DNA of 64,000 nucleotides from Centroscyllium fabricii. Taxonomy: Eukaryota. Location: the NCBI GenBank assembly GCA_051313645.2, contig JBNRSN020000007.1, forward strand, positions 87,792,001 to 87,856,000, given 5' to 3'. Numbering within the stretch: the stretch's first letter is position 1; each line of letters begins with the position of its first letter. The translations under genes were made by a program, and so were the position numbers. This document shows, piece after piece, positions 3,490 through 64,000 of this stretch. The notes below the pieces were generated by a model. The model made no database searches. It saw nothing but the letters and a program-made list of their open reading frames with translations, and was not told the origin of the DNA.

Positions 3490-3988
3490 AACATATCCGA
3501 CACATGATTTGAAATGAATGCAGATGAGGAAGCCCACGTTGATCATCTTAGCTCATCTGTCCACAAAGGTCTCCCCAATAAAGCCATCTAATAGGCAATT
3601 TACCCATCGCCAATTTTAACATTGCCCTCCTTCGTTCTGTCTGTTTACCTTTGAGCAATGCTTCTGCTGCTGGACCATTTTATACAAGGTGCCTAGTTAA
3701 TCACATACTTTACTATTTTGGCATTCAGTTTGCTTTAATTGCTGCTCCCAAATTCTTGAATATATTCAGTTTAAACAATAAAGGATAAGGTGTCTTCAAC
3801 TCTGCATCAAAGCCAGCCCAGATTGATGCAATAAAAATCTTACAGCCAGCAGCAAGTATTGAATCTGCCATTTTGATCTGATGTGGGCAGGCTAACACCT
3901 CAGCTTGCCCAGTAATGCCCTTTCCACATCACTAGTCCTTCCCTCAGCGTCACAAAAGATCTGAACTGTATTGACAAGTTTATTAGTA

Positions 3989-4372
3989 CAGGTTGTGCAC
4001 CGTTAATCCATTACCCGATAAGCCGGCAACTTCAGTCTTCCGGAAAAAAATTGCCCCGACTGCCCTGCGCATGCGCAAAATGCAGCCGCGATTGATGCTT
4101 CAGTGAATGATCTGAAGCGGGCGCATGCACAGATCATTTACAATGGCCGAAGTTTTTAATCATCTACGCATGCGCTGCTGAACCATCCCGGGCCGGAGCT
4201 TCCCGAGTCAGGCCGCGCCTTCCCGAACAATAAGTGCATGCGCAGACCACTCAAAATGGCCGCCGGCCTTCCGCGGCAGCCATTTTGAATGGTCTGCGCA
4301 TGCGCTCTGGGATTTTCACTTTCCCGGCACGGGCCTGGTCCCGCCCGTGCCAGATTAACGGTGCTCAACCTG
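3989..4372. mobile_element. Tc1/pogo (Tigger)-like MITE, family A
   Basis: TA-flanked TIRs CAGGTTG(T/A)GCACCGTTAATC. Internal GCGCATGCGC repeats. Confidence 0.88.
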
Positions 4373-4479
4373 TACAACCTTTTGTGAGCAAAAATAGGGA
4401 TTTTAATGGACTCCATATTTGGGGTAAAATTTTTCAGTCTCACTGAGAAAGTCATAAAATACCTAGTGTGTGAAATAGA

Positions 4480-4850
4480 AAAGTATCATATGCATAAACA
4501 GACACTGTTCTGAGGGAATTTGTTGAGCCAGAGTGAACACTGATCACACCCTAAAAGCATGTGGTTAGTGTGAGACAGTTAACAAAAAGGCAAATTGGGT
4601 ACTGGTTTGCGTCTGAAGGATACTGGAGTGTAGGAAAAGTGATCTAAAATGTGACGTTTTCAACTATATTGAATCCTGATAGGAGATAAGCTACACAGGC
4701 ACTGAACTAGACAATGGTAAGGCCAATTGTGGAGGACAGCATATGGTTTTGGTCAACCTACTTCAAGAGAATGAATGATGCATTAGAAAAAAAATCAGAG
4801 TAGGAGGATTCCAAGCTGTCGGGGACTAAGTTATGAAAAAAGGCAAAAGT
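4480..4850 (+). mobile_element. Old degraded CR1 fragment
   Basis: Degenerate VRP.LE...FWS.Y-type CR1 ORF2 C-terminal sequence. Confidence 0.55.
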
Positions 4851-6405
4851 GACGACCCTTGGAATTGGCAGCAGTAAATAAGGCATTTCACTTGGACAGT
4901 GCAAGACTATGGAGAAATTCAAAACTCTCCATTAAGCTGAGAAATTCAATAGGTTACCTAACCTAAGGATGCTCGATGTTGACATTAGTGCCTATAATAG
5001 AAACTATTCCATTTCTCTGCACCATCATCCCTCAGCTTAATGGGCATAAATTCAGAAGTTTAAAAAAAAGATTACTTAGCTTTTTATAGCCAATTTTCCA
5101 AAAGTAATTACACATACCAGAAGTAATATCACTAGGAATATCAGGATAGATGAATTGAAGTGACACCCATGTGACCATCACAAACTGCATCCAAGGCCCT
5201 ATGCTGTGAATTATGTTAGTTTGTGAATAGTATCGAGGCTTACATTGCCATCAGCTTTGGATTCAGACAAGGAACTACCTCCACATCTCATTCTTCATCG
5301 CTCCCACCTTTGCCCCAAATCTAAGTTTTGGACAGTAGCCATTATCCAAGGGAAGTGTATTGCACTGGATGATTCCAAATAAACTGTAGGACATTATGGT
5401 GGATAAACCTGTTGGACATGTCATTGCACTGCCTGACATTCAACAATATGGCTTTGTGACACATTCTTTACATATTTTGCACTCTAAATTATAGAGCTTG
5501 TGAATTGTGCATCTGTGAATATTTGAAAATCTGTGTTCGGATGCATTAGAAAATCTGTGTAAGGATGCATTATCAAAAGTGAATCATGCCTACACATTAT
5601 CTAACACTTCTTAGCAGATGATTATAGGAGCACTGCATGAGAGTGGGTGCAGGCCATATGTCCACTTTCTCAGCAGCACATGCAAAGATGAGGCCAATCC
5701 TAAATCAGGCAATAATCAGATACTTCACTGGCGGGGAAGGCGACAAGCTAACAAACATATATTCTGTCCTACAGTCCCACAGATTTTCACTTATTTAATC
5801 AAATATTTGTATTTTCCTACCCCTGGTCAGAACTGGACCACACTTCAAGTGTTAGTAACTCATGAGTGTGGAGTCTGAATCCTACAGCACAACTTATGTG
5901 CTTTTCTCTTAATTACTGTTTCCAGCTGCTTAATGGTGGTTATGATGCAGTTTAACCTGATCCCATTGTACCTACGAGAATGAGTGGTTAGAATGTGAAA
6001 CTCGGTACCATAAGAAGTAGTTGAGGCAACTAGCATAGATCTATTTAAAGGGAAGTTCGATAAACACGAGGGAGAAAGGAATAGAAAGGATATAAAGAAG
6101 GGCGAGAGGAGGTCTGTATGGAGTATAGGCTTCAGCATGAACCCGTTAGTAGTTACAACACAGAAACAGGCCTATGTATCTTTTGCACAACTAAACACAG
6201 AATGAAACAGCTTCACGAGATACTCTGAAGTTTTAGGGCACAATCATATCAGAAAAAAAGATAACTCCAGGGGCTAATGCAACCCCAGAGGGATTCTCTT
6301 CAGTGTAAAATACACTTATAGTTTGACCTGTAGGAAACTCCAAGCACCCAAAGTTACTGCTAGTGTAAAAGACCAAGTACTGTTCCACTGGACTCAGTGT
6401 ACCTA

Positions 6406-21367: not shown

Positions 21368-21402
21368 ATCCTTGATGCCTTGTGTGTCTGGAAATCTATC
21401 TA

Positions 21403-21560
21403 CAGGTTGTGCACCACTAATTCGGCACCCCGGGGACCAGGTCGGACCACTGAAAATGTCGAACCACTGAAGGTTCGGGGTGCGCGCATGCGCAGATCAT
21501 TCAAAATGGCCGCTGTGCAGGCGCAGACAATTCAAAATGGCCACCACGCATGTCTCACAC
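21403..21560. mobile_element. Truncated family A-like MITE (one end only)
   Basis: TA|CAGGTTGTGCACC start and GCGCATGCGCAGATCATTCAAAATGG motif. Confidence 0.6.
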
Positions 21561-22222: not shown

Positions 22223-22670
22223 AATCTGAGCCTTACTGCATTCAATGTTGATTAATTATAGTATCTAAAAGATGGTACAAACACCCAATGGATCAGCCTG
22301 GGGTGGTACTGAGCCACACAAACTGAGGAAGTCCCAAGCTCATTCCCTGATCTACGTGGCGCTAGTTTATCTCACCGAAGGTACTGGTAGGGAATCTACA
22401 ACTGGTTTCAGTACCACAAACATTGGGGGAAGAAGGAAGAAAAACAAAGACACATACAGCATTTTTAACATGAAAAATGTCATGGTGTTTCAGACACATA
22501 TGGAATACGGACACTGATCTGGGAAAGGGAAGATTAGAATGGGCAAGCAAAAGCTTAGAGATGGGTTTTAAATTGTTTTAAGAGGCAGGCACAGAGAGCT
22601 TGGTATGAATTCCAAAAAAATAGGACCTAGACGACCAAAGTCTCTACTGCCAACAGTGGGATAAAAAGAG

Positions 22671-22848
22671 CAAGAAGTCACACAACCCCAGGTTATAGTC
22701 CAACAGTTTTATTTTAAATCACAAGCTTTCCGAGCGTCTGCCCCTTCGTCAGGCTCCGAAAGCTTGTGATTTAAAATAAAACTGTTGGACTATAACCTGG
22801 TGTTGTGTGACTTCTTGCATTTGTCCAACACCGGCACCTCCACATCAT
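22671..22848 (+). mobile_element. Short Penelope-like insertion with inverted arms
   Basis: Inverted repeat of ~60 bp, hammerhead core remnant, CCAACACCGGCACCTCCACATCAT tail, and 12-bp TSD GGATAAAAAGAG at 22659-22670 and 22849-22860. Confidence 0.78.
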
Positions 22849-23599
22849 GGATAAAAAGAGGAAGGAGCACACAAGATGCAGAATGGAAGGTTCTGTGGAG
22901 GGCAAAGAAATATAGGAGAGAAAAAGATTGTAGAGATAGGTGGGTGAGGCCATGGAGGGATTTAAAGACAAGGATTTGAAACTTGATGTATTGGGGTCGA
23001 GAGGCTGATGTACATCAGCAAGGAATGGGCGAGGGCGAACAGGACTTAGTGCAGGACAACTGAAGATTGAACAGCCAGGGATCAGACTCCTGAATGCCAC
23101 CAACCCAATCTCCGAGAAAGTGTACATATTTAAAGATCAGACAAGGACAAGATTAGGATTAGTGTTAAATTCCCCCTATGGTCAAATAACCTGCTGACAC
23201 ACAGCATCAGTAAGTATCCTTGGGAAAGGACATGGTAACATTTAAGAGAAACATTTTCACCAGATCTCAAGATGAATGGTAACTGCATCTTTTCCAGAGC
23301 TCTCGTATATTAAAATTGGACCCTTCAGCATTTAACAAAATGAATCCAGCAGCATTTAACAAAACTAATCCAGCAGCACAAACTCCTAAAATAAATTAAT
23401 ACTTTCTAATTCATTTTTTGCACTTTGGGAAGACAGATGGGGAGGGAACGAGAAGGGGGTGGCTCGTATCAAAAACAACTGGGGAAACTGGTTACAGAGT
23501 AGGGCTAGACCAACAAGCAAACATTTGAAAGCGAACACCAAAACAGCCAGTCACTACACACGAGCAATCTGCCTAGATGCAATAATCGTCACTGTAACT

Positions 23600-28100: not shown

Positions 28101-28424
28101 AGCCAATCCTGTTCAGGAATTGTCTTTACTTAGCCATGGGAGTCTTACTTTAATACAGGTTGAGCACCGTTAATCGGGCACGGGCGGGACCAGACCCGTG
28201 CCGGGAAATGGAAAAAACCGGGAGAACGAGTTTGGACACTGCGCATGCGCACCATGCAAAATGGCAGCGCGCATGCGCGCAACATTGGTATTGGCTGGCG
28301 CGCGCATGCGCAGATCGTCCAATATTGGCCGCCGCGAAGTTTTTTGATGGGCTCAGGCTTTTGTGGCGTTCCGTTTAGGTTTTAGGGCTGTCGGGCAGCA
28401 GTGAAAGGCCGGTCTTGCGGGGGG

Positions 28425-28582
28425 AGGCAGGAGGGTGGCGCGGGTCGGGGGGGGGGGAAGGAGGGTGGCGCGGGTCGGGGGGGGGGGGGGGGGGGGGGAG
28501 GAGGGTGGCGCGGGTCGGGAAGGAGGAAGGCGCGGGTCGGGTCGGTGGGGGGAAAGGAGGGTGACGCGGGTCGGCGGGGGGG
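28425..28582 (+). repeat. G-rich minisatellite (GGAGGGTGGCGCGGGTCGGG-like units), potential G-quadruplex
   Basis: About five degenerate units separated by G runs. Confidence 0.85.
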
Positions 28583-28614
28583 CAATTTATCAATCCCCTG
28601 TTTTGCTTTCAATT

Positions 28615-28818
28615 GTAAGAGGTCACACGGCGCCAGGCTGTGGTCCAACGGTTTTAGTTGGGGTCACGGGCTTTCGGAGCGCCGCTTCCCCGTCAGGTGA
28701 TGGGGGAGCGGCGCTCCGAAGGCCCGTGATTTCGAGTGGGACTTTTGGACTACAGCCTGGTGCTGTGTGGCTTCTTACAATTGTCCATCCCAGTACAACA
28801 CCAGCACCTCCACATCAT
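28615..28818 (+). mobile_element. Penelope-like inverted insert, A>G hypermutated
   Basis: Aligns by eye to 22671-22848 and 42480-42774 with the same 3' tail. TTCAATT occurs on both flanks. Confidence 0.78.
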
Positions 28819-29231
28819 GGCTTCAATTACAGTTATCGATAAAATAACCGGCGGCCGTATTGAATTATCTGCGCATGCGGTAACCTTCCGGCGACGCATG
28901 CGCAGATCATTCAAAACACCCGCAGCTGTTTTGAATGATCTGCGCATGCGCTCGGCGCATGCGCAGATCATTCGTTGAAGCCACGATGGCGGCTGCCATT
29001 TTGCGCATGCGCAGTGCAGTCGGGGCAATTTGTGCCGGCAGACTGAAGCTGCCGGCTATTCGGTTACCGGATTAACGGTGCTCAACCTGTACTACACTTG
29101 TTCAGTCAGAATGCTCCAGTCATCTCTGGTGCCAAGGGATACAGCAGATTATTTTTCTTGGTTGCTCTCCAGTCAATGCATCTACCAGTCAGGATAATGG
29201 ATTGCTATCATGAATGATCTGTGAAAGTTTA

Positions 29232-31160: not shown

Positions 31161-31463
<303 letters not shown>

Positions 31464-42330: not shown

Positions 42331-42479
42331 GTGTTGATGAAACAAGGACCAAACCATAACGGATACAATAAAACGGTGTTTTATGTTGAAATTGTATATG
42401 TTTATGAAAATAACAGGCACCAAGACAGGTGGATAAGGTGGTTAGAAAGGCATATGGGATACCTGCCTTCATTAGCCGA

Positions 42480-42774
42480 AAGTCACACAACACCAGGTTT
42501 AAAGTCCAACGTTTTATTTTAAATCACAAGCTTTCGGAGCTTTTGGAGTTAAGGTATGCTAATATGCTTGTGTGCTCTAGGGTTGGATGTATGGGATCAA
42601 ATTTCTCCCCTCCCCCATGTGTGTGATCTTTGACTTTAGTTTCTCTTTCACCTGACGAAGGGGCAAAAGCTCCGAAAGCTTGTGATTTAAAATAAAACGT
42701 TGGACTTTAAACCTGGTGTTGTGTGACTTTTTGCATTTGTCCACCCCAGTCCAACACCGGCACCTCCGCATTAT
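42480..42774 (+). mobile_element. Short Penelope-like insertion with inverted arms
   Basis: 12-bp TSD TTCATTAGCCGA at 42468-42479 and 42775-42786. Inverted arms of ~60 bp. Intact hammerhead motif. Confidence 0.8.
42648..42685 (+). ncRNA. Minimal type I hammerhead ribozyme motif (Penelope-type)
   Basis: TCAC-CTGACGA-A-GGGGC-AAAA-GCTCC-GAAA-GCTT-GTGA gives helix I TCAC/GTGA, the CUGANGA and GAAA core, a 5-bp helix II and a palindromic AAGCTT helix III. Confidence 0.7.
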
Positions 42775-50729: not shown

Positions 50730-52200
50730 GCAGCCCATTTAAGGAGTTAGGCGATATCTTGAAAAACAAGACCTCAAGGGTGGTAATCTCTGGATTGCTT
50801 CCTGTGTGCCACACCCTGGACAGGTTAAAGAGAGCAATATTATTAAGGTCAATGTATAGCTGTAGAGATGGTGCAGGAGGGAAGGATTCATAATTCTTGT
50901 GACATTGAATTAAATTGAATTCTGGAACAAGGGAAGGATATACCGAAGGGACAGTCTTCATTTGAACTAAGACAGCACCAGTGTCCTTGTAGAGAAAGTA
51001 AATAGAGTACTTGGGGAGGATTTAAATTAATATGGCAGGAGGCTGGGGAATGACTAAGTGTGCGACTAAAGAGGGAGAGCATGATTAATAAAGCCATTAG
51101 AATACATAGCTGAAATAAACAAAAGGAAAATGGGGGGGGAGTAGAAAGAGAAACAAATAAGCAGTTGTACAAGCAGGCAATGGATAGCAAGAAATTAAAT
51201 GAGAATACCAGCACAAAGAATAAGGGTCAATATTCCAGAAAATTGGAGTCAGGATTGAGTGGTATATGTGTGAATGTAAAACAGGAGAGTTAGAACTTTT
51301 ACTAACTATGGAGGGATGTGATATAGTAGCTATAATGGCTACACTTCACCTGGGGAAGGAGCTGCGTTCCGAAAGCTTGTGATTTCAAATAAAACTGTTG
51401 GACTATAACCTGGTGTGTGACTTCTCACAGCTATAATGGAGATATGGCTTGAGGTTGAACAGGTTAGGAAACTTAATACTGTATTCCTAGTTATAACATT
51501 TTTAGGAGAGCTAGGGAGGGGAAAAAAGGATCAAATGGCATTTTTAGTGAAGGATTCTATAACCGCACTGGAACACAAAGATGTCCTAGGGGATTGCAAT
51601 AAGACAATGTTAAGAAATAGGAAGTAAAATGGTACAATTCTTGGTCAGCAAACTTTGGAGATGAGATGGAGGGTGAAAACTGCAGACAGATATGCAAGAA
51701 CAACAGGGCAATAATGGGGGATTTAACTATCTCAATACCCTAGAATAAAGCCAATGCGTGTTGTAATGGAATACTTTTTAGAATTAATCCAAGACTGCTA
51801 CCTGGATCAGTATATTTCTATTCCAACAAGGAAAAAAGCATTGCTTTATTTAGTTCTGGAGAATTTAAGCGAGGCAAATAACTGATGTAAGAGTAAGAGA
51901 ACAATGGGAAATTAGTGACCACAACATATTTAGATTCAATGTAAGACTAGAAAAGGATAATGACAAGTCAAACGTAAGAGTGCAATAAATGAAAAAAGAC
52001 GAAGCTCAGTAAGATAAAAAAAAGGGTCTGGTCCAAATTAATTGGAAAAATTAGCAAACAGATCAATGGTTTGGAGTGGAAGTCTTCAAATGTGAGATGG
52101 ATAAAGTCCAAAATAAATATATACCTTAGTAGAATTCCATGCATAAATAGAGATTAAAATTAAACAAAGTAAGAGACATACAATAAAATTAGGGATAACA
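50730..52200 (+). mobile_element. Old CR1 (ORF1 end and endonuclease) remnant
   Basis: Degenerate VVISGLLP, IMGDFNY and ISDHN motifs. Confidence 0.65.
51339..51428 (+). mobile_element. Very short Penelope-like insertion (single arm)
   Basis: 11-bp TSD AGCTATAATGG at 51328-51338 and 51429-51439. Degenerate hammerhead TCACCTGGGGAAGGAGCTGCGTTCCGAAAGCTTGTGA. Confidence 0.75.
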
Positions 52201-62590: not shown

Positions 62591-63000
62591 CTGGGGAAAG
62601 AATTGCATTCACTGTTCAGTGAAAAATGATTTAATTGAACCATGAAGCAACCAGAGTAATGTTGGACCCAATGAAACGACATAATACTTACACTTATACA
62701 GTGCCTTTCAAGATGAAACGTAGAGCACGTCACAAAATGAATTAGTGTCGGAATTTGTTATATACCACTTTCTGGTCAAACAGCACGGTCACTACATATC
62801 CTCCAGTGCCTTCACAGTTACTTCTGATATACCCCAAAACTCCCATCCTTGGACCCTTCCTATTCAATATCTACATGCTACCCCTCAGCAATGTCATGCA
62901 CAAGTATGTCAGCTTCCACATGAATACCAAGGTGGACTTCAGGATAGTTGCTGTACCAGATGATTGCATGCTGAACATCAAGTTACATTGAAACTTACTA

Positions 63001-63733
63001 CAGGTTGAGCACCGTTAATCCGGCACGGGCGGGACCAGGCCCGTACCGGGAAAATGAAAATCCCGAACGAGTGAAGTGTCGGTGAGCGCATGCGCAGACC
63101 ATTCAAAATGGCCACCGCGAAAGGCTGGTGGCCATTTTGAGTGGTCTGTGCATGCGCTTGTCGTTCGGGGAGGCCCGGGATCGGCTCCGAGAGGCCCGGC
63201 GAGGTTGGCTCGGAGGCGCGAGGCTGTGCTCCGAGAGGCTGGGCTGGGTTCGGAGAGGTTGGGCGGTGCTCGGAGAGGCGAGGCTGAGCTCGGAGAGGCT
63301 GAGCGGGGCTCGGAGAGGCTGGGCGGGGCTCGGAGAGGCGAGGCTGGGCTTGGAGAGGCTGGATGGGGCTTGGAGAGGCTGGACGGGGCTCGGAGAGGCG
63401 AGGCTCGGTGAGGCGAGGCTGCGCTCGGAGAGGCGAGGCTGGGCTGGGAGAGGCTGGGCGAGGCTCGGAGAGGTGAGGCTGGGCTGGGCTCGGAGAGGCT
63501 GGGCGGGGCTGGGTTCGGAGAGGCGAGGCTGGGCGGGGCTGGGTTCGGAGAGGCTGGGCTCAGAGGGCCAGTGAATGATCTGCGCATGCGCTCACCGTTT
63601 GGCGGCGCATGCGCAGATCAGTCACCGAAGCATCAATTGCGGCGGCCATTATGCGCGGCGCAGTCGGGGAAATTATTGCCGGACGTTTGAAGCTGCCGGT
63701 TGTTTGGGTAACGGATTACTGGTGCTCAACCTG
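63001..63733. mobile_element. Family A MITE in the last TAF1 intron, with a G-rich minisatellite
   Basis: TA|CAGGTTGAGCACC...GGTGCTCAACCTG|TA. Confidence 0.9.
63180..63570 (+). repeat. Minisatellite of GGCTCGGAGAGGC(GA/TG)-type units
   Basis: Many degenerate 20-25 bp units. Explains the low-complexity ORFs at this position. Confidence 0.88.
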
Positions 63734-64000
63734 TATTACTCAAAGTTGAACACTAATCTAGGAAATTTACACTGATCAGAAAAGAACTGGGTCTAGTGAA
63801 ATAATTGAGATGTCTTTATCCTGGCTAATTTCTGAGTTTTGTTTAAATGTTATCTGTATATGAGAACATCTGCAACTACAGTACAACACTGAAAAATAAA
63901 AAGCAAATGATAGTATATTTTAATTGAACAAATATTAGTTGATCTGTGGCATTGCTTACAATCTTTTTCAAGTACAATGTTTTTATGCCTTTGTTACCTC

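Follow-up and report, generated by a model that had tools for sequence, protein, structure and literature searches.

Clustered A-to-G changes carried through reverse transcription were described for avian retroviruses, in which ADAR hypermutation of an inverted repeat in the viral RNA affected nearly 50% of the adenines (Hajjar and Linial 1995; Felder 1994; reviewed in the accessible part of PMC12925331). In cellular transcripts, ADAR avoids a 5' G, favours a 3' G and prefers A.C mismatches (accessible sections of PMC3091650). How far A-to-I editing becomes an inherited DNA change has been debated mostly from correlations, according to the available portion of PMC10209271. The studies on the "DNA editing" of vertebrate retrotransposons took a different direction: the main text of PMC4866542, as far as accessible, does not deal with ADAR and selects against A-to-G alignments, and the available text of PMC2873906 treats A-to-G clusters as RNA-level events. 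A full-text literature search returned no paper in which ADAR edits had become fixed in the DNA of chromosomal non-LTR repeats or of a DNA transposon; since most subscription papers and supplements lay outside its scope, this absence is not proven.

Class II transposons are thought to move as DNA only, and those of the pogo/Tigger group present a TA target, short terminal inverted repeats (TIRs) and non-autonomous derivatives. Penelope-like elements extend both strands of their target from two start sites of the reverse transcriptase (RT), which lie one 30-40-nt tail apart (accessible part of PMC11167929), and their minimal hammerhead architecture is described in PMC4209133, in the sections available. 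Here we describe a hairpin in a 64,000-nucleotide stretch of DNA from Centroscyllium fabricii (called the window below), whose genome measures 7.2 Gb and has repeats that look shark-like. From the sequence comparisons presented here, its A>G changes are likely ADAR edits of read-through RNA that were likely written into germline DNA by a LINE RT, and the edited hairpin was then amplified about 2,600-fold by a pogo/Tigger DNA transposon.

The hairpin and its host transposon

The features of the locus are collected in Table 1. The insert is intronic, located between exons near 31355 and 25091 of an OGT-like gene whose TPR and catalytic exons are spread over about 41-31430 of the minus strand. 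Read as RNA, the plus strand of the insert forms a continuous hairpin in which the mismatches are G.U pairs (-160.7 kcal/mol, z=-18.6); the minus strand reaches -117.9 kcal/mol and contains internal loops. The hammerhead on the minus, OGT-sense strand reads as the original prediction had claimed, with CUGACGG at the core and CCC in place of the CUU cleavage triplet, and its loss is real and probably incidental. An Rfam scan of the focal hairpin gave no hammerhead match and only two matches to miRNA precursors, both sub-threshold, which we take as generic hairpin matches.

Table 1. Features of the focal locus and of its unedited relatives, in positions of the window
Feature	Position	Strand	Remarks
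Sister hairpin without edits, same Penelope-like family	22670..22850	+	others at 42479-42774 and 51345-51440
Non-autonomous pogo/Tigger DNA transposon hosting the hairpin	28154..29091	.	TA target at both ends, ~25-bp terminal inverted repeats
G-rich tandem repeat in the transposon	28407..28580	+	length variable
Target-site duplication (11 bp), left copy	28604..28614	+	overlaps the arm start; Penelope-like insertion
Inverted-arm insert	28610-28819		two 85-nt arms, 4-nt loop, ~36-nt tail
Left arm, inverted tail-less Penelope-like pseudo-LTR	28610..28694	-	13 A>G on the plus strand vs precursor
Minimal type-I hammerhead remnant	28664..28700	-	core and cleavage triplet mutated; read by eye
Right arm, sense pseudo-LTR	28699..28783	+	10 A>G on the plus strand vs precursor
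Unpaired Penelope "tail", ~36 nt	28784..28819	+	A>G at 0/9 adenines
Target-site duplication, right copy	28818..28828	+	

The surrounding transposon was matched in 30/30 loci fetched with a pattern from the left arm and in 30/30 fetched with a pattern from the right flank (677 matches). A 3,959-bp relative (L224) has the same TIRs, the same edited hairpin and an open reading frame with CENP-B_N, HTH_Tnp_Tc5 and DDE_1 domains (DDE_1 at E=2e-44, DD32D spacing counted by eye). Because of the TA ends, the TIRs and this transposase frame, the host of the hairpin is assigned to the pogo/Tigger DNA transposons. The open transposase of L224, of about 605 aa, occupies 3511-5400 on the minus strand, and its edited hairpin (5931-6143) is found some 530 nt upstream of the ATG; this hairpin, whose left pseudo-LTR points into the transposase gene, could provide a promoter or form part of the 5' UTR. 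The G-rich repeat extends over hundreds of bases in some late copies (L085, L093, L094, L119), and the window holds more pieces of the same pogo/Tigger family, in which the hairpin is absent, at 3975-4374, 21400-21511 and 62995-63748.

The Penelope-like family behind the insert

The unit from which the arms derive consists of a pseudo-LTR, a minimal hammerhead (read by eye) and a tail of 30-40 nt, and is often inverted. Its copies are often hairpins, of which the centre and the target duplication are individual and only one arm bears the tail; such paired inverted copies fit a Penelope-like element extending both target strands from two start sites. The genome contains at least 71,379 unedited arm matches of this family. 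In L205 and L187, an ORF with a GIY-YIG-like sequence ends about 360 nt upstream of the unit; a homologous 153-aa piece, candidate for the endonuclease, had no Pfam match, and its nearest Atlas clusters include GIY-YIG in 31% and 18% of their members. Two other Penelope-like ORFs likewise went unrecognised by Pfam. The idea that the Penelope tail is a required priming site was rejected, since the edited strand is equally often antisense to the tail-bearing copy.

Substitutions in the focal hairpin

When compared with seven unedited precursors at the same site (L121-L127), the focal hairpin exhibits A>G at 23/50 arm adenines, all on the plus strand and between positions 28615 and 28770, which agrees with the roughly 20 changes first counted by hand. 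The accompanying T>C changes, originally put at about five, number eight, each at a T opposite a G, and do restore pairing; a possible ninth is a CpG site polymorphic among the precursors. Over the whole series, T>C affected 8/19 T opposite a G vs 0/30 T paired with A (Fisher p=1.7e-4). The unpaired 3' tail is free of A>G, as had been noticed (0/9, p=0.009). In an alignment with 54 other loci of the family, it is the A>G changes in both arms that set the focal hairpin apart.

The left-arm pattern has 2,641 exact matches in the genome, and 98 of the first 100 matches listed carry the edited form, which rules out a single locally mutated copy. The original prediction was wrong on this point: the edits arose in transposon ancestors, in no fewer than two steps and probably in three, before the amplification. 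Edited arms are also found at high depth in short-read contigs from two public runs of two studies (X3 and X6, of which X3 may be the source sample); together with the 2,641 matches, they exclude the artefact of assembly or base-calling that had been considered at the outset. The G-rich variant is thus a multi-copy subfamily. The prediction had held that a separate subfamily of this kind would speak against editing, and the variant does prove to be multi-copy; the editing reading nevertheless stands, because a single unit is present in both arms with opposite alleles and an unedited precursor exists at the same site.

A fossil series at one transposon site

A pattern for the insertion site retrieved 17 places, comprising 5 empty sites, 7 unedited hairpins and 5 early-edited ones, and the target-site sequence is single in the 5 empty-site transposon copies. 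Patterns for the early states gave 192 and 168 matches. The aligned copies were distributed by stage into 5 empty, 7 unedited, 26 first-round, 2 second-round and 51 late ones, and the steps between them were read from column majorities after leaving out L131 and L133 (mis-oriented), L064, L065, L082 and L090 (partly deleted) and L165 (other locus); L115 and L121 are truncated copies. From the unedited to the first-round state, A>G occurred at 19/50 arm adenines and T>C at 0/52 (p=1.5e-7), with 0/9 A>G in the tail and 5 other arm changes. The neighbours of this round taken alone present no clear bias (5' G 3/11 vs 16/39; 3' G 3/12). The passage to the second round, known from two copies, is a burst of T>C at 7 sites, all T opposite a new G. 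Finally, the late copies gained 4 more A>G, each before a G (p=0.023 for this all-NAG context, four sites only), and 1 more T>C opposite a new G. Five late copies that have the latest flank alleles are without one third-round edit, probably through reversion.

The order of these stages is also found in the sequence surrounding the hairpin. In a tree of the left flank built without the hairpin, first-round copies form one group (86/88) and the later ones are nested inside it (99/98), for the 35 of 96 staged copies that were long enough and with a midpoint root and rough support values. The within-group distance falls from 7% to 3% and then 1.5% along the series. The flanks and target duplication are retained through all stages, 4-kb autonomous full-length copies with an open ORF carry the changes of every stage, and when late long copies are compared with unedited ones, only the 250-nt segment holding the hairpin has an excess of A>G (24 vs 0-6 per segment). 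Along the same series the pattern matches rise from 7 to about 170 and about 2,600, the longest run identical to an unedited copy drops from 57 to 22 and 13 nt, and the folding energy of the DNA hairpin, about -86 kcal/mol at first, becomes weaker, at about -57 and -76 kcal/mol. Two contigs of the public runs X10 and X11 belong here: the one labelled organism C has the first-round left arm (depth 5.2), and in the one labelled organism D an unedited right arm with its tail is joined to the flank of the transposon. Being single contigs, they only hint that the early states may be common to other species.

Transposon copies at rest behave differently from the master branches. Their changes are mainly CpG decay, with A>G at 1/1689 of the A-T pairs and, once a single ancestral site had been left out of the count, T>C at 3/1298 of the T opposite a G. 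Since the resting copies present neither bias, the changes came as bursts on master branches and not through an ongoing DNA process; repair of the hairpin DNA as such a process is ruled out, and the originally proposed deamination of hairpin DNA followed by arm-to-arm conversion finds no support. More than one private A>G was seen in none of the 77 first-round and late copies, and no founder copy inside a LINE retrocopy was found among these 77 copies of the transposon lineage.

Edited hairpins at other loci and in LINE retrocopies

Search patterns that forced two A>G changes gave 47 and 22 matches, from which 52 loci were fetched. Of these, 7 were set aside because they had no more than 4 A>G, 4 as duplicates, 5 because they belong to the transposon lineage and 4 as surplus members of sets with a shared donor, which left 32 independent loci. 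These present A>G at 486/1068 arm adenines, T>C at 10/1131 and A>G at 1/142 in the tails, a pooled editing rate that is biased upward by the two forced changes and by the exclusion of the 7 weakly changed loci; the 54 unedited control loci have 18/2163 A>G in their arms. With the forced sites removed, adenines were edited in 38/183 cases after a 5' G vs 366/771 after other neighbours (21% vs 47%), and in 123/237 cases before a 3' G vs 281/717 otherwise (52% vs 39%), although the recurrence of sites across copies overstates the p-values for these neighbours. The bias matches the preferences of ADAR. The depletion of 5' G and the confinement to the arms both turned out as the original prediction expected, and together with the LINE retrocopy family described below they support its proposal that an ADAR-hyperedited hairpin RNA was reverse-transcribed into the genome. 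Exons of ADAR-family deaminases (PF02137; ADAR1/2 or ADAD/ADAT) occur on 5 contigs.

In loci that retain both arms, the changes usually fall on one strand only, even if 460-1,350 nt separate the arms, and L173 has 83 G.T vs 3 A.C mismatches; in L206, L216 and L223 one arm alone is clearly edited. Edited loci are rare, 47 as a lower bound vs the 71,379 unedited arm matches. Some of them (L207, L219, L221) retain the left arm only. In L195, an adjoining non-Penelope repeat at 1560-1750 seems very poor in A and rich in G, on the strand that is also edited in the arm, and in L215, around 1730-1800, a lone edited left arm is found beside a SINE-like start.

A LINE RT downstream of the hairpin is encoded on the edited strand in 18/20 loci with a match, or 15/17 after families were collapsed, vs 8/18 unedited controls (p=0.012 for the collapsed comparison); among 36 edited loci, 13 had no LINE RT match within 250 nt and 2 had a downstream LINE RT on the opposite strand. 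Three sets of loci have the same hairpin insertion site at different places in the genome, and their shared sequence ends at the LINE 3' tail. For one of them, family B, a search by flank junctions, blind to editing, gave 22 copies, of which 19 reach the common LINE 3' tail and 7 start inside the arms. A simple-repeat tail at the LINE 3' end, variable 5' truncation and unrelated outer flanks mark these copies as LINE retrocopies, and two further locus pairs present the same pattern. Leaving out L245 and L251 as duplicates and 4 copies with at most 2 arm adenines, 16 copies with at least 13 arm adenines remained, among them the one unedited full copy, L255, which served as the reference; the other 15 of the 16 are all edited, in 15 different patterns, with 4-25 A>G each relative to L255 and a median pattern overlap of 0.33. 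Pooled over the family, A>G affected 196/519 arm adenines and 4/1091 in the upstream flank, and T>C 2/544. This is what would be predicted for independently edited RNA molecules followed by target-primed reverse transcription. Four members (L248, L242, L241, L238) also have 12-36 A>G among the 110 adenines of the LINE body downstream of the hairpin; fixed editing is therefore not confined to Penelope hairpins. Many edited hairpins still keep the target duplication at their edges.

A scenario and its alternatives

These data can be arranged in the following scenario. A Penelope-like inverted pair inserted into the transposon with an 11-bp duplication, and both empty and unedited filled copies survive. 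On one branch, the plus-strand A>G of the first round then appeared in the arms with no T>C and an unchanged tail, presumably through ADAR acting on plus-strand RNA; a transposon copy bearing these edits may have become fixed in DNA by being retro-copied as a passenger, to be remobilised later by transposase. The conversion of 7, then 1 more, T opposite new G and the 4 further A>G before G would reflect a second RNA passage on the minus strand and a third on the plus strand. At other loci, hairpin-bearing LINE retrocopies of one donor structure, each edited differently, provide the model for such a passage. That the first round passed through RNA is very likely in our judgement. A minus-strand passage is a likely origin of the T>C round, because the sites involved are A.C mismatches on that strand, which ADAR prefers, and adjacent mismatches were not co-converted. 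We lean towards a third, plus-strand passage, judged from four sites. The passenger route proposed for the transposon lineage itself is borrowed from what is seen at the other loci.

A LINE passenger seems a reasonably probable route for the focal lineage, and the reading closest to it keeps the same ADAR editing and dispenses with the passenger: edited RNA or its cDNA would have been the template when the transposon underwent gap repair or gene conversion, for instance following excision or with priming by the Penelope RT. The constancy of flanks and target duplication across stages, the full-length 4-kb autonomous copies that bear every stage's changes with their ORF open, and the repeated rounds in one lineage are all easily accommodated in this way. 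We nevertheless hold such in-place write-back to be rather unlikely: no positive sign of it was seen, private edit clusters are absent from the 77 resting copies, and elsewhere in the genome the passenger route can be seen directly. A further reading, which we consider unlikely, accepts ADAR for the first round and ascribes the T>C changes to a DNA process, either mismatch repair or template switching from arm to arm in a hairpin left single-stranded during gap repair of the transposon. The restoration of Watson-Crick pairs by 8/8 T>C speaks for it, as do the TIRs of the transposon, which vary in a manner suggesting end-to-end homogenisation. Against it are the direction of change on the main line (8 T>C vs 0 G>A), site 154, which changed while its neighbours 152 and 155 were not co-converted, and the lack of any such correction in resting copies. 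The lack of change at TpG sites, which G.T glycosylases prefer, also speaks against it.

Doing without an RNA intermediate is harder still. Adenine might be deaminated at the DNA level, in hairpins or in RNA:DNA hybrids, by ADAR during Penelope insertion or by an unknown enzyme; ADARs do deaminate dA in hybrids in vitro (accessible part of PMC12925331), and the target duplication at the edges of many edited hairpins also speaks for this reading. The duplication is, however, simply inherited from the donor, the tails, which would likewise be in the hybrid, are unedited (1/142), the site is known with unedited precursors, edit patterns vary between sibling LINE retrocopies, and the strand tracks LINE orientation. 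Editing at the first insertion through RNA:cDNA hybrids is ruled out by the unedited tails and the existing precursor, and family B largely refutes DNA-level deamination in general, which we regard as very improbable. It is scarcely credible that the changes originated in the ordinary divergence of a subfamily, in GC-biased conversion or in selection for an RNA hairpin with a function, even though the variant is multi-copy, its plus strand folds more stably in late than in unedited copies (-159 vs -132 to -137 kcal/mol) and Rfam gives a weak miRNA-like match below the gathering score. Opposite alleles of one unit on two arms, a first step made of 19 A>G and 0 T>C, and the same one-strand pattern at dozens of unrelated loci are at odds with such an origin, and the fossil series, the 32 loci and family B refute it.

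Returning to ADAR editing of RNA, two or three successive masters that each went through RNA would need a high rate or selection. Tentatively, and with less than even confidence, we propose that the transposon lineage cycled repeatedly through RNA, being edited by ADAR on the plus, the minus and again the plus strand, and that each edited version founded the next larger burst because editing had removed its homology with the 71,000-arm Penelope family and made the DNA palindrome weaker. In this reading, a host enzyme directed against double-stranded RNA would be a source of heritable mutations by which a transposon escapes silencing more easily, and edited hairpins would count RNA passages in the history of the genome. 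Escape from silencing is a possible cause of the rise in copy number; young families are also larger for other reasons.

The one-strand A>G clusters are real and recurrent in this genome and are well supported as fossilised A-to-I editing; their most striking aspect is the repeated appearance in a DNA transposon lineage. RNA editing thus likely leaves heritable mutations in this animal. They can be read copy by copy here: the reference is unedited, the retrocopies differ in their edits and the intermediates are dated. The 15/16 edited copies of family B suggest that, in the germline or early embryo, RNA capable of retrotransposition is a substrate of ADAR. As a passage counter, the edit mark suggests an RNA step in the ancestry of a class II transposon. 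Finally, the asymmetry of G.T vs A.C mismatches in inverted repeats offers a genome-only screen applicable to any assembly.

Comparison with known systems

The Penelope-like component resembles the Penelope/Poseidon-like elements by its pseudo-LTR, its minimal hammerhead and arms that end with or without a tail of about 36 nt (accessible parts of PMC11167929 and PMC4209133), and differs in the editing of inverted insertions, which is absent from the description in the available text of PMC11167929. The host shares with pogo/Tigger transposons the TA target, the short TIRs, the CENP-B-type DNA-binding domains and DDE_1, and is distinguished by a passenger hairpin with RNA-editing marks that were probably acquired in its own lineage. 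Compared with the A-to-I hyper-editing of inverted repeats in transcripts, we find the same confinement to duplexes, avoidance of a 5' G, favouring of a 3' G and preference for A.C (PMC3091650, in the sections available), but editing is normally transient in RNA and here the changes are fixed in DNA. The APOBEC "DNA editing" of vertebrate LTR retrotransposons likewise left fossil clusters of deaminase changes in genomic retroelement copies, recognised when the copies are compared with one another; those changes are G>A, arise on cDNA and are not tied to a duplex (available text of PMC4866542 and PMC2873906). The avian retroviral hypermutation is similar in its clustered A>G in an inverted repeat, carried through reverse transcription (PMC12925331, in the part accessible), whereas the edits described here are chromosomal and inherited, occur in non-LTR retrocopies, recur across the genome and were amplified by a DNA transposon.
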